Of a DNA stretch of 47,817 bases, positions 16,811 to 35,449 are shown in pieces. Made by a program: the position numbers and the translations under genes. The stretch spans positions 1-47,817 of the forward strand of contig NW_021834498.1 in NCBI RefSeq assembly GCF_006345805.1, given 5' to 3'. How positions within the stretch are numbered: the first letter of the stretch is position 1; every line of letters starts with the position of its first letter. This DNA is from Octopus sinensis (taxonomy: Eukaryota). Below the pieces are notes generated by a model that made no database searches, was not told the DNA's origin, and worked only from the letters and a program-made list of their open reading frames with translations.

Positions 16811-17443
16811 AATAAACAGGAAACAGACACACGTGGTCGCCAACTCTTCGTCAGTTATCTGCTAGCGAGTCAATCGCAATTTAGCGCCTTACCGATATTA
16901 TTATATCCCCTAGTGGTGGCGCCGAAGACAAATGCTTCCGGGAATTGGCGAGCCAAATAAACATGAAACAAAACAGAATATGTACGGACAAGAATGCGTT
17001 ACAGACAGTTAACATACGAATGTGGAATAGATGGCATCCAATGTGAGACAATTAGTGTATGCACGTGGGACAGCGAAGAAAACAAACATGACTGTGGGAA
17101 AACAAGCGAATTGATATAGATATCAGTCAGGAGACAAAAATAGCCGATGCTGGAAGACTATCCTGAAGGATTTAACAGAGGGACAACAAAAGGCGAATAG
17201 AGCGGGTGACGAGGAAATGAGACAGTTTGGTAAACCAACCGGTCCAGAAAAGAAAGAGATAAGACAATGATCAGAGGTCACATGTCGGTAGTAGGAAGGA
17301 TGAAAATGGCGGAGAGCAAAGAGAAACACAGAGGGGTGGGCAAAAGGATGTCAGAGATAGAAGGAAGGGGACAAATAGAGAGAGAGAGAGAGAGTTAGAG
17401 AAGGCCAAAGAACGTGAAAGATAGCAACATAGAAGGAAGGGGA

Positions 17444-17491
<48 letters not shown>

Positions 17492-17820
17492 AGTGTGCGT
17501 GAAAGTTAGAGAGGAAGAGAAAGGTGGGAAAGAGAAGTACAAAAATATGGGGTATTAAGCTGTAAATAAAAAATTGTTCTAATGTAAGTAATATATAACA
17601 TATAATAAACGAGAAACAAAGATGGTCGCCAACTTCTTATCAGTTATCGGCCAGCGAGTCAATCGCAATTTCGCGCCTAACGGATTATATCACACCCCGC
17701 CGGGAACTGACGAGCTAAAAAACCAAGAAACGACAGAAAATTGTACAAACTGACAAGAATGCGTTATAGACAGTTAACATACAAATGTGGAATAAATGTA
17801 ATCCAAAACGAGACAATTGG
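16811..17820 (-). repeat. Direct repeats (16811-17055 and 17604-17820) flanking a purine-rich spacer
   Basis: Shared TGGTCGCCAAC...CAGTTATC.GC.AGCGAGTCAATCGCAATTT...ACAAGAATGCGTTA.AGACAGTTAACATAC.AATGTGGAATA. The partial-tandem arrangement is reminiscent of retroelement terminal repeats. Confidence 0.8.
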
Positions 17821-23451: not shown

Positions 23452-25689
23452 TTAACATTTTTTTCCTTTCCCTTGGTGTGAATTTCTCTGTATCAGTATG
23501 TTCGGATGGTTGAGTCTGGGCTTGTACTTTTCAATGAAGAATGTTTCCTTGTTTAGTCTAATTTGTGTTGATGATCCGAAAGCACATTGGTAAAATGGAA
23601 AGATTAAAAATTGTGGTAGTAGTTGCTTTGCGCATTTCTCAATGTGCTCACTAAAAGGTATCATTCTATATTCTGGGAATGCAATCTGTTGTCGATGCAG
23701 TGTGCATCTACGTCTGAGTGATAGTCCCGTGGAACCCACGTAGTCTTGGTGGCAGCCCGAGCATTTTATGACATAAATTATGTTTTCAGAGGCACAAGTA
23801 AAGTTAGATTTGATCTTGAATTTCTGTCCCTCTTTAAAGAGGAATTCTGATCCTTCTAGCAGGTTAGGACATGTTGCACAGTTCGATCTACCACATTTTT
23901 TTACTTTTGCATCCGTAATTTCAGAAGACAATTTTGCCTTTGTGAGAATCTTTTTGAGTGATTTAGGCTGTTTGTAGCTTTTATTGATTTGGTGTATGTT
24001 TAGAATTTCCTTTAATTTGGGGTCTTTATGAAGTATTGGTAAATTCTGGGTGATGATGGTGAAGGCTTCTTTGTTTCTGGGGTTGTATGTAGATATGTAA
24101 GGTAGTATTTTCGGGGAAGGTGTGTTGTTGTATTGAACTTTTCTTAAAGTTTCTATGTTGATTTCTGTTGCACGTCTGATCCCATCCTCTATGAGTTGAG
24201 CTGGGTAATGTCTGTCAATTAGGGTGTTTTTGAGTTCTTGCAGTCTAAAGTTCCTGGTATTTTGTTCTGACACTATTGTGCATATCCTTCTTGCAAGGTT
24301 GAAGGGGATGTTTGTTTTAGTGTGTCTTGGGTGGCATGAATTAAAAAGAAGGTATTGTTTGGCGTCTGTGGCTTTGTAAAAAATGTCTGTTTCTATTTTA
24401 AGGTTAATTTTTTAATTAGTATATCCAGAACGGGAGCTCCTTTTGGTTGTATTCCATTGTGAACTGTATATTTGGGTTTATGCTGTTCAATAGGTTTTTA
24501 AATTTTAGGAGTTTATCTGTGTTTTCATTCCAGAGAATAAAACAATCGTCTAAGAATCGTTTCCAATTCTCTTTTATGTATTGAGAGAGGGGGTTTCCAA
24601 AGATTGATAAAGATCCTGGTAAATGATTATTTCCATGTATCCCATTGTTAAGTTCGCAATGACTGGTGCTGCCCTTGTACCCATAGCAATTCCGGATTTT
24701 TGACGGTAAAATGTATTGTCAAACATGAAGTGGTTATTGTGTAGGATGAATTCAATTGATTTAGTAATGAATTCTTTACTGATCCTTTTTGGTATTTCTT
24801 CCGGAAATTGATCTAACCAGAACTGTATTGCCTCCAGTCCATAATTATGAGGTATACTGGTATATAAGTTAACTACATCAAATGAAACCAGGATTGTTTC
24901 TTCCTTGGCTTTTTTTGGAAGGTGGTTTAACATATCTAAGTCATCTCTGATATGGCTATCGATATGTTTAAGGAAGGGTTTCAGGAGGATGTCCATAAGT
25001 AGACTTAGTCTGTGTGTTTCACAGGTTGGGCCAGCTACAATGGGTCGTAGTTTTAGGTCCCCCGGGTTAGGTGTGTGTATGTATGTCTTTGGTGATTTTT
25101 TAATGGTTTCATTTATAATTTGACTTTTATGAATTTTTGGCAGACCATAGAAAAGGCTAGGTTTGCATTTAAAGTTTGTTGTTAGTTCCTTTTCATGGGT
25201 TTTAATTAGTGAAGATAGAGTTTTCATTATTTTTTGTGGGGTGTAGGTGGTAATTTTTTCATAATGTAGGTCGTCATCAAGCAAGGAAATTACAAGATTT
25301 CTGTAGTATGATGTATCCATTATTACAACTGCATTTCCCTTGTCTGCTTCCTTAATGGTTATATATTCATCATTTTGAAGTTCTATCAGCTCTTTCCATT
25401 GTGTAGTGTTAAAATTTGAGTTAACTTTCTGTTTATGTATAGTATGGTAGGGAAAGTTCTCAATGTGGTTACAGAATTCGTCAAGATCTTTATTTCTTCC
25501 TCTGTGTGGGATGTGTTCACTTTTGTTCTTGACTAGTGATTCATCTTCAGTATTGAAACTGGTTGATGCTTCTGCTAGTCTTAATTTTCTGCAAAATTCT
25601 GTTATATTATCCTTGATTTCATTTAGGTTGGTTCTGCGTGGAGTTGGTGTAAATTTGAGCCCTTTTGAGAGGATGTCAATTTTTATGTT
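23452..25689 (-). pseudogene. PLE RT-GIY-YIG polyprotein reading frame broken by three 1-nt deletions
   Basis: ORFs 24574-25824 and 23452-24273 are linked through alternative frames IFGNPLSQYIKENWKRFLDDCFILWNE...ELP, (F)LDILIK and IETDIFYKATDAKQYLLFNSCHPRHTKTNIPFNLARRICTIVSEQ. Confidence 0.88.
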
Positions 25690-26072
25690 GTCGATGCAGT
25701 GTGCATCTGCGCCTGAGTGATAGTCCCCAGGGACACCAGGACACAGGCTGGAACCTAGTAATAAGGAGAAACCGAAGATAATCAATCTTTCAACCAAACC
25801 TCTTTCTAACATAAAAATTGACATCCTCTCAAAAGGCCCCCTTCTCTTTTCTATCTTTAATTGCTTGTTGAGCTTCTATAGGATGATGTCTTCTATAAAT
25901 GCTCTTAGCACACCTTATACTTGTAGCATTTTTATATTCGAAAAATACTTACAATAGCAAGCTTACAATGTAATATGACAAACCTTCATTAGAAATCGAC
26001 CTTTCGAACCCACCAAAGTAGAGGATGAAATAGAACTCCGCAGGGACACCTGCCAATATGTGACAACACACA

Positions 26073-26378: not shown

Positions 26379-27103
26379 ACACACACACTAGCTTTGATAC
26401 GACTCTTAATCTGTCTCTTTTTCTCTCTCTCTCTCTCCTCCCTTATTCCACTTCCTTTCTTTCCCTCTCCATCCGTCCCCCCCCTTCTACGTTTCTCTAT
26501 CTCTCTCACCTCCAGCCCCCTCGATCTGTCTCTTTCTTCTCCTCCCTCGTCTACCTTCTCTCCCTTTTCATCTGTCCCTTCCTCCTGTCTTTTGTTCTCA
26601 CGTGACAGCTAGCCGCTGTTGAGCGCTCTTTTCGTTTTCAGCAGCCGCAGAAGCAAGACGTATTTGTTCGTCTCCCCGTGGCCTTCAGGCACAACTTCAC
26701 AAGCCAGCCCCATACTCAAATCGTCCTGTCGAAAGACCCTTGTCCTACGTCCTGGTTTTGTTTTGTTGTTTATTTTTTATTTTTACCGTTATTGTTTTTA
26801 CGTTTTTGTATTCTTATTGGTGTCACGTATTCTGTATTTTTGCTTGTGTACTTCGATCGTTTTCCGTCCTTTCGTTGTATACATTCGAAGCTTTCTTCCA
26901 GGGGATCTAATGCGCTTGGCTTAGATTTCCCTTGGCGGGCTGGCCATATCGGAGCAATCTCAAGATTAATCAGCCGAAATTGCTAAGATGATCTGGTTCT
27001 TGACTGATGACTGAGGGCTTCGAATGTCCCGTCCTGTGGTTCTTGTGTCGTCTCTGTGGTGTTTCATGTTCTTGTCCATGTCTGTAATTAATTTTACTGT
27101 TTA

Positions 27104-27106
<3 letters not shown>
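26377..27106 (+). repeat. Unclassified non-coding element between (TA)n arrays with pyrimidine-rich body and structured 3' part
   Basis: Sharp (TA)n borders, strong strand skew and nested stems at 26881-27027. Confidence 0.5.
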
Positions 27107-27174
<68 letters not shown>

Positions 27175-28689: not shown

Positions 28690-30145
28690 GCAGGCATGGC
28701 TGTGTAGTAAGTAGCTTGCTTACCAACCACATAGTTCCAGGTTCAGTCCCACTGGGTAAGTGTCTTCTACTAAAGCTTCGGGCCGACCAAAGCCTTGCGA
28801 GTGGATTTGGTTGACAGAAACTGAAAGAAGCCCGTCATATATACGAGGGACGTTCAATAAGTAATGCCTCTGACACACTTGCTGTTGTTTGATCTAGCTG
28901 AAATTCTGCATGTGCAATCAATTATATCTCTATAGAGTAAGTGGCAAATTACAGCTCTGAGCTAATTGTGGTTTCTGATTTACAGGAGTTTGAACCGAGT
29001 CAAGTGTGAAATGGAGCCTGTTGAGTGTCGAGCAGTGATCCGGTTTTTGTATTTGAAAGGACGCACACCACGGGAGACTTTTGATGAAATGAAAGTAACT
29101 TATGGTGATGATGCCCCATCATATGACCTTGTAAAACGCTGGCATCGTGAATTCAAACATGGTCGGAACTCTGTGGAAGCAGCTCCCAGATCTGGTCGCC
29201 CCCTTCTGCCATTGATGAGGCATCTATCCGTCAATTGAGGCTGCCATTTTGGAAGATCGACGCATAACTATTCGCCAAATAGCCCATAAGGTCAAGATTA
29301 GTACCGGGTCTGTGGAAACTATCATTCATGACCATTTGCATATGCAAAAGGTATCTGCCGATGGATTCCCAGGTTGCTCACGCCTTTCCAGAAGCAAGAA
29401 CGCGTCGAGTGCTCGAGGATGAATTTGGAAATGTGCCAAGAAGATGAGTCAAAATTTTTCAAAAGACTGATTACACAGGATGAAACCTGGGTCCATCACG
29501 ATGATCCAGAGACCAAAGCCCAGTCAATGCAGTGGAAGCACCGTGACTCACCCCCTCCAAAGAAGGCAAGGGTGCAGCCCTCCGCTGGCAAGGACATGCT
29601 CACAGTCTTCTGGGACCAGGACGGAGTAGTGATGACAGATTTCCTGGCAAAGGGAACCACAATTGCAGGAGCCTATTATGCTTCACTTTTGAGGAAATTA
29701 AGAGAAGTTATCAAAATCAAGAGGCGGGGTAAGATCAGCAAAGGCATCCTCCTCCTGCAGGACAACGCTCCGGTCCACAACTCGCTTGTCGCCAGATCAG
29801 AAGCACAGGCGTATGACTATGAACTCCTCTCCCATCCCCCTACTTTCCTGACCTTGCACCCTCTGATTTTCACCTCTTCCCACTCATGAAGTTGTTTTTG
29901 AAAGGAAAGCGTTTCCCAGATGATGAAGCCTTGATTTCTGAAGTCGCGTTCAGGTCGGAGGACCAAGCTGGGGTCTTCTATAAAAACGGTCTCCAGAGCT
30001 GCATCAAACAATGAGAGAAATGCATAACTCTGGGTGGTTCCTATGTAGAAAAAGACTAATAACTGTGCCAAGTTTCGTTGCTCTACTGCTATGGGAAGTG
30101 GGTCAGGGGCATTACTTATTGAACGCCCCTCGTATATATATGTAC

Positions 30146-34324: not shown

Positions 34325-35449
34325 CATTTATCAAAGAAATAGATAGTTGTCATTCTAGTATTAGTTCTAGCGATATTCTCGTCATTTTTACAATATAGTA
34401 GGATCTGATGGGCACCATTCTGTGAGAAAAACAGCACCATGACGCAATTAGGTTTGCCAGATATTTGGAAACGATATGCTGTACTGTTTGGCATCCACGC
34501 CGGAAGTTCCAATACGAACAGTCCCGGGTGATTGGACATCAAACTCAAGAGAGTGCAGCGGTTTCGGAAAGAGTTAGATGAGTCTAATGGTGATTATGAA
34601 GGTACGGCAGCTCGCAAAACACACTCTGATCGTTCTGATAAGAAAAGAACTCCTGAATTTGTTGGTGAGATCCAGGCCATGATTGACAACGATCCCTCCA
34701 AGTCAATCTGTTCCAAGGCCAGGGACATGGGAGTGAGTTTCTTATTGGGCAGGTGGTGAATGAAGACATTCAGTATGCCTTATACAAGATGAAATAGGGC
34801 CAATTTTTATCCCAAGTCATCAAGGACAGGAGGAAAGACCGCACTACGAAGCTTTTGAACAAATTCAAGCATCCGCTCGAACCGAACGTGATTTGGTTTT
34901 TCTCAGACGAAAAAGTTTTCTGTCAGGATCATATGATGAACACACAAAACAAGCGTTGCTTTGCCGTGTTCCCGAAACATGTACCGAGAATGATAAAAAT
35001 CAAACATCCAGTCAACATCATGGAGTTTCAAGTGATTACAAGTGATGGCCACGTTATGCAACCATCCATCTCCTCACACGGCCTCACACTCAACATGGAG
35101 GTCTACATCAGGTGCCTGGAGGAGGTAGTGCTGCTCCGGGTCAAGAGGGTGGCTGCTGGAAGACCCTATATCTGGCAACAGGGCTCTGCACCATGCCACA
35201 CAAGCAAGAGAATCTAGTCATAGCTATAAGACAATTTCTGCGGTCACGCCTCCCCTAACATCTGGCCACCTAACTAGTCAGGAGACCGTCGTCCGGAGAC
35301 CGTGGTTGAAGCCAATGGCGATTTTATTGAATAAATTTACTCTTTAGTATTTCAAGATATTTTTATGTAATCTTTGTAAATATATCTATGATGTCAGTGT
35401 CATTTTCATCTTTGCGTAATTTAGACGACAATGTATTCACCGCACTCTG
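34325..35449 (+). mobile_element. Tc1/mariner-superfamily (DD37D/maT-like) transposon relic, 5' TIR not seen, internal deletion
   Basis: WFFSDEKVF, KHPVNIM, YIWQQGSAPCHTS and WPPN motifs, with stops and frameshifts. The 3' terminus is shared with the 9345-9972 copy. Confidence 0.85.

Follow-up and report, generated by a model that had tools for sequence, protein, structure and literature searches.

The locus considered here raises the question of which fold is adopted by a compact, multi-stem RNA motif of the Octopus sinensis genome, and whether this motif is a ribozyme. It occupies positions 26881-27027 of the forward strand of contig NW_021834498.1 (RefSeq assembly GCF_006345805.1), of which a stretch of 47,817 nucleotides, hereafter the window, was analyzed. 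The original prediction listed an outer stem, a hairpin, an inner stem, a GAAA region and the boxes CTGG and CTGATGA, and proposed that together they might form an undescribed ribozyme or an element recognized by the reverse transcriptase (RT) of TA-targeting retroelements. All of these parts were found in place, and the motif was confirmed to be real and non-random. As judged from its sequence, it is a hammerhead ribozyme fold, permuted in a non-circular manner like types SGC and CSG, and not a new ribozyme class. Every base of the hammerhead core is present and each of the three stems closes, the first strand of stem II being supplied from upstream. The motif is carried by a tandem non-autonomous retroelement, in whose RNA it probably cuts itself after C26959.

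Hammerhead core and strand order of the motif

The outer stem P0, supported by the pairing and covariation tables, joins 26881-26895 to 27013-27027 with 15 of 15 pairs, two of them G-U. Inside it lies a hairpin region (26898-26935), which keeps the same place in families B, D and E described below and whose stem, 26901-26910/26921-26930, forms all 10 pairs. It is followed by the stem GGCTG/CAGCC (26938-26942/26971-26975, 5/5 pairs), by GAAATTGC at 26976-26983 and, after 9 nt, by CTGG (26993-26996), which is separated by 7 nt from CTGATGA at 27004-27010. The whole motif was more stable than shuffled sequences upon folding (z = -3.55, with 1 of 200 shuffles equally stable), and the core with stems I and III was reproduced in none of 20,000 dinucleotide shuffles.

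The window copy carries the full hammerhead core, i.e., C3 U4 G5 A6 N7 G8 A9, G12 A13 A14, the A15.1-U16.1 pair and H17. It had been claimed that hammerhead stems I and II could not be closed; in fact stems I, II and III adjoin the core and close with 6, 5 and 5 bp, respectively. Stem I pairs 26960-26965 with 26998-27003 (6/6), one strand adjoining the predicted site on its 3' side and the other adjoining CUGAUGA on its 5' side. Stem II is the GGCTG/CAGCC stem itself, while stem III (26954-26958/26979-26983) corresponds to the GCAAT/ATTGC pairing proposed as a pseudoknot, in which 5/5 pairs form. Along the plus strand, block S (26954-26965) comprises a stem III strand ending at U16.1 (26958), H17 (C26959), the predicted cut between 26959 and 26960 and the first stem I strand. 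Block G (26971-26983) contains the 3' strand of stem II, GAAA (26976-26979) and the second stem III strand, and the segment 26998-27010 holds the other stem I strand and the CUGAUGA box up to A9 (27010). The resulting block order, site-GAAA-CUGAUGA, is crossed, unlike the nested, circularly permuted order of types I-III. Both boxes announced in the original prediction are present, but the type II order attributed to them was rejected, since the block with the cleavage site precedes GAAA.

The bases behind CUGAUGA in the window copy give only 0-1 bp with stem II and pair with the outer stem instead, the 3' strand of P0 following A9. The other P0 strand runs through the hairpin into G10.1 (26938), the first base of the 5' strand of stem II (26938-26942), which comes from upstream instead of from behind CUGAUGA. 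Block C of types SGC and CSG is not continuous here, as the strand following CUGANGA provides 0-2 bp of stem II in families A, B and D, family E being ambiguous. We infer that the backbone no longer links A9 directly to G10.1 and that a four-way junction, which the outer stem and the hairpin would close, stands there instead. Further along, an interaction helix pairs 26944-26950 with 26990-26996 (6/7 in the window copy, without mismatch in older subfamilies). Pairing of CTGG (26993-26996) with CCAG at 26898 was rejected, 26944-26950 being the better partner; in the centroid fold CCAG lengthens the hairpin.

In a kink-turn, two helices are separated by a 3-nt bulge and, behind it, tandem G.A and A.G pairs. 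This pattern is found between stem III and the interaction helix, where the strand 26951-26953 pairs with 26987-26989 past the bulge 26984-26986, within a segment (26984-26996) that continues as the 3' strand of the interaction helix. Such a kink-turn could provide the sharp bend that was found difficult to account for in SGC and CSG hammerheads (Eckert et al., 2023; PMC10085705).

With type SGC (HRIMA-1 and variants; PMC10085705), the motif shares the block order, the full core, the short linker between stems I and II and an extra helix joining these two stems. It differs in that block C is split, the first strand of stem II and the interaction strand lying upstream, and in that it has an outer stem and a hairpin at A9/G10.1 as well as the kink-turn pattern. 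Moreover, it stands in an animal genome, whereas SGC was reported from metatranscriptomes only, outside the genomes of known organisms. Type CSG, of which two examples with demonstrated cleavage were given in PMC10085705, has the same ring connectivity and the same strand order from stem II onward, but its ring is opened between stem III and the interaction helix and not at A9/G10.1. Because block C is split, the motif is a member of neither type, despite probably working like them. Cleavage of SGC and CSG hammerheads was shown in vitro in that study, which assumed CUGANGA and the stem II strand behind it to be inseparable, i.e., the A9/G10.1 link to be unbreakable; a viroid hammerhead tolerates one extra base at this link (PMC3705267).

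In full-text searches that covered few subscription journals, neither a split-core hammerhead nor a hammerhead fold of Naiads was found described. Only three hammerhead types plus variants are listed in a paper of 2026 (PMC13725137), and passages of PMC10162972, one of three works it cites for the variants, contain nothing on a split-core fold. A search of region 26700-27100 against Rfam gave three weak non-ribozyme matches at E<=10 and no hammerhead, and that of the whole window gave microsatellite noise among the matches listed (150 of 394). A scan of metagenomes yielded 65 pattern matches, which were regarded as chance since none of them closes stem I with at least 4 bp.

Sequence families and covariation

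Five families of the fold were distinguished: A, which includes the window motif and several subfamilies; B; C, which is old; D, the 3' tail of Naiad elements; and E, with three copies. Families B, D and E keep the layout of A with different stem sequences, and the decayed family C (four copies) fits weakly. The architecture said to be common to the motif and to repeats near 16.8 and 17.6 kb was recovered, with other stem sequences. Both repeats are decayed family B copies on the minus strand, one at 16835-16954 with G12 changed to U, the other at 17624-17716 with G8 changed to A and with the hairpin and the 5' strand of stem II deleted.

Pairing was tabulated after removal of four misassigned C rows and one D row, and a cell counted only where the row was locally identical to its family. 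In family A (189 distinct rows), pairs were formed in 910/928 cells of stem I, 569/590 of stem II, 620/630 of stem III, 710/836 of the interaction helix and 445/449 of the outer stem. The corresponding values for stems I, II and III were 126/158, 72/94 and 83/101 in family B (25 rows), and 177/197, 161/180 and 124/132 in family D (35 rows). Among 18 diverse A copies, 90.6% of the cells were paired and nine pairs had changed on both sides, three of them in the interaction helix; so many double-sided changes occurred in 1 of 500 shuffles, but relatedness of the copies can also lift them above shuffles.

Covariation is seen between families, where both sides of the stems were rewritten and still pair. 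Between A and D, 6/6 positions have changed in stem I and three of the first four in stem III; between A and B, 4/5 have changed in stem II. These cross-family pairs were anchored on the core, since MAFFT misaligned the families; two copies, L131 (insertion) and L090 (mismatch), gave a wrong register for the upstream stem II. The G10.1-C11.1 pair is retained in families A, B, D and E. In families A to D, as well as in one E copy, the upstream stem II strand is Watson-Crick paired and precedes the site by 20-25 nt. Among core positions only N7 and H17 differ between subfamilies or families, N7 being U, A, G and C in 103, 57, 27 and 1 family A copies, respectively. The G.A and A.G pairs of the kink-turn occur in 122/124 and 123/126 copies of A, 9/11 and 8/11 of B, and 31/33 and 34/34 of D, and the pattern was read by eye in C. 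A sequence-free descriptor of the fold gave 198 matches in the fetched loci, and none in 5.1 Mb of shuffled loci or in reversed loci. Nested folding of a family D copy was no more stable than that of shuffles (z 0.55).

With no Rfam match, stems that covary between families and a core varying only at N7 and H17, the original view of a conserved, covarying RNA of TA-targeting retroelements, probably a ribozyme and lacking an Rfam model, stands. The idea of an undescribed class does not, the fold being that of a hammerhead.

The carrier element and the 5' ends of its copies

The motif belongs to a family A copy (26390-27111, plus strand) that is 5'-truncated, retains about 720 of 779-780 nt and passes the predicted cut site intact. 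A (TA)n target run lies at its 3' end (27106-27171). Family A forms head-to-tail arrays of a 779-780-nt unit, which end at (TA)n and have variable 5' ends. A first look at the carrier repeat gave 1,823 candidates, with 98-100% identity in the 40 scored, and the core pattern matched 1,522 times in the genome, mostly in family A, with none in the reversed control. Each unit has one ribozyme motif, and its longest ATG frame, for which no Pfam search was made, spans 125 codons. The carrier is a young, non-coding, (TA)n-targeting, retrozyme-like tandem element. It resembles metazoan non-long terminal repeat retrozymes (PMC7229834; bioRxiv 10.64898/2026.07.22.740005) in its non-coding tandem units with one hammerhead each, its high-copy dispersal and its link to Penelope-like elements (PLEs). 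Those retrozymes differ in carrying type I hammerheads in units of mostly 150-450 nt, against 779-780 nt with a permuted split fold here. A family A variant without the junction hairpin was observed in tandem arrays at several loci (L080, L090, L150), so the hairpin may be dispensable for mobilization.

Were the RNA cut after C26959, a reverse transcript begun at the tail would be expected to end at that point. Matches to the element broke at the predicted site in 292 copies, while the positions one base upstream and one base downstream gave 46 and 72. In the first 30 of these site-break copies, 22 lacked the upstream part (including one internal deletion and one restart), seven had substitutions and one had extra bases at the site; the "inverted" flag on site-break copies proved to be a TA-repeat artefact. 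At a control T 37 nt downstream, junctions were found in 6 of the 70 copies examined (of 157), which is about ten-fold fewer than at the site, allowing for subfamily coverage (20/30). For loci picked by downstream anchors (153 of 160), 47 of 63 junctions fell in 26956-26974 and 16 in 26888-26955 (p 7e-19, the intervals being chosen after the histogram was seen), and none fell in 26943-26955 among the 153 aligned copies. Loci obtained from the core-pattern search alone gave 23 versus 11 junctions (p 1e-8). The start of truncated copies coincides with the predicted cut or closely follows it, and rarely falls shortly ahead of it, which is indirect evidence of cleavage in vivo. Because the ends are spread, with modes at the AT-rich 26965-26969, microhomology shapes them.

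Two observations concern the same point of the element. Some copies (L251, L139, L142, L152 and others) have an insert of 1-5 bases at precisely the predicted cut, such as cut ends would acquire through ligation or template jumping; the search pattern returned spacing variants only. In four fold-back insertions (L132, L146, L148, L151), the inversion point is at or just after the predicted cut, like in inverted 5' copies of PLEs. Separately, another TA-inserted repeat with a minimal core resembling a type I hammerhead was noticed at three loci (L003, about 1330-1370; L040, about 2240-2270 on the minus strand; L061, about 745-780 in a minus-strand listing), its first box reading CCGACGA in 3/3 copies. 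Elsewhere in the window, transposase remnants are found at 29332-29889 (plus strand), which matches Pfam Transposase_1, and at 34798-35217 (plus strand), judged by eye.

Naiad elements, alternative explanations and proposed life cycle

Naiads are PLEs that target (TA)n and were described as lacking canonical hammerheads (Craig et al., 2021; PMC8557442). In eight of them an "HHR_half_core" was flagged, with core halves 35-50 nt apart, and the cores were not folded in that study. Read by eye, the tails of two cephalopod Naiad consensus sequences from this paper show the same split fold, and family D matches the published cephalopod Naiad tail, with one motif copy per tail. The family D tail pattern matched 368 times in the genome and not in the control. 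In 11/20 loci a decayed RT frame ends 0.86-2.3 kb upstream of the motif, and RT fragments near family D matched RVT_1 with E about 1e-3, below the cut-off. As in Naiads, the RT of family D is at the C-terminus of the open reading frame (ORF) and the tail ends at (TA)n. In passages of the supplement of PMC8557442, which are not a census, three further distinct Naiad sequences were read by eye as the split fold, no kink-turn being evident in two, and five Naiad consensus tails as intact type CSG, so far known from two metagenomic sequences (PMC10085705). These readings suggest that a new opening of the CSG/SGC ring at A9/G10.1 gives the split form, a step available to tandem or circular elements. 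Family A is like Naiads in targeting (TA)n and in the split fold of its tail, but it encodes no RT and has the common fold without evident sequence likeness to the Naiad tail. Descent from a common ancestor is the likely source of the fold shared with Naiad tails.

All hammerheads that were assayed keep the link at which the core is broken here (PMC10085705), the truncation modes fall at AT-rich 26965-26969, and PLE hammerheads are often weak cleavers in vitro (PMC4209133). These facts would suit a hammerhead-derived but silent structure, kept as a signal for RT binding or priming, the 5' step then resulting from RT stalling and AT microhomology. We consider this unlikely, as the core bases are retained, N7 and H17 vary as in active hammerheads, and 26943-26955 just upstream, which also contains AT, has no junctions in the aligned copies. 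Besides, no helix barrier would be expected at 26960, because an RT arriving from the 3' side would already have copied the partners of the upstream strands. An ordinary SGC hammerhead acting as a switch is quite improbable. In its active state the outer stem would release the strand after CUGAUGA, which would then form stem II, and the upstream strand and the outer stem would make up the off state. The strand behind CUGANGA gives 0-2 bp in families A, B and D, and the upstream strand is Watson-Crick paired in four families and one E copy. In favor of the switch, 5 bp can form in family E with a 1-nt insert, and 4 bp in a single family C copy with a 2-nt insert. Finally, a canonical hammerhead could be formed in trans or across adjacent tandem units, as in minimal PLE hammerheads, given that the element is tandem and that metazoan hammerheads are known to act as dimers. 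The chance of this is very small, since stems I and III, with 5-6 bp, close inside one unit, no unit offers a stem II behind CUGANGA, and Naiad tails have single copies.

Several points weigh against self-cleavage by the split hammerhead. Published hammerheads have at most 1-2 nt between CUGANGA and stem II (PMC10085705), no double-sided change was found in stems II or III among the 18 diverse family A copies, and the search patterns themselves account in part for the conservation of the core. For family E (L090:215-320, L097, L290), which may be an intermediate or a switch, a stem II made with the bases behind CUGAUGA is feasible too (5 bp, two of them G-U). The 5' ends form a step over about 19 nt without a spike, only 9/47 junctions lie in 26956-26961, and the choice of intervals from the histogram counts here as well. 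The mobilizing partner adds to these points. The window also contains a broken PLE (23452-25875, minus strand), with an RT followed by a CxxxxCxxC motif and GIY-YIG, in the order of Neptune/Nematis-type elements. Its family, with 21,326 candidates and 95-100% identity among 150 scored, is young and ends at (TA)n. No CUGANGA was found in its 3' untranslated region in six long copies and the tails listed, which is unusual for such PLEs, and as none lies behind the ORF near the element end, this element was rejected as a carrier of the fold. It is a possible partner in trans. Any partner is putative, the Naiad RT copies seen here being fragmentary or decayed and family A young.

Established here are the pairings, their covariation from family to family, a tandem unit of 779-780 nt that stops at (TA)n, and a step in 5' ends at the predicted site. 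On this basis a life cycle may be proposed. The kink-turn would bend stem III back onto the interaction helix, which would clamp stems I and II. Read-through transcripts would be cut into unit monomers, some of which may be re-ligated into circles. A Penelope-like RT/endonuclease acting in trans would then be primed on a (TA)n target, at the internal TATA tail that lies some 150 nt past the site. Linear RNA would give short copies stopping near the cut, and circular or uncut RNA would give tandem arrays.

Taken together, the sequences indicate that this fold is probably an active new topology, in which a four-way junction takes the place of the A9-G10.1 link. Beside intact CSG forms, it would represent a ribozyme overlooked both in the Naiads of various animal phyla and in the retrozymes of this genome. 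Hammerheads permuted in a non-circular manner would be common in animal genomes, and hammerhead "blocks" could be cut. The descriptor can be used for re-screening eukaryotic genomes, the question can be tested on a 147-nt transcript, and the natural four-way junction and kink-turn offer a scaffold for ribozyme engineering. If true, the finding would add a permutation beyond the six thought to exhaust the hammerhead and move non-circular RNA permutations from environmental sequences into animal genomes. It would also explain the apparent lack of a ribozyme in a large retrotransposon clade whose relatives all have one.
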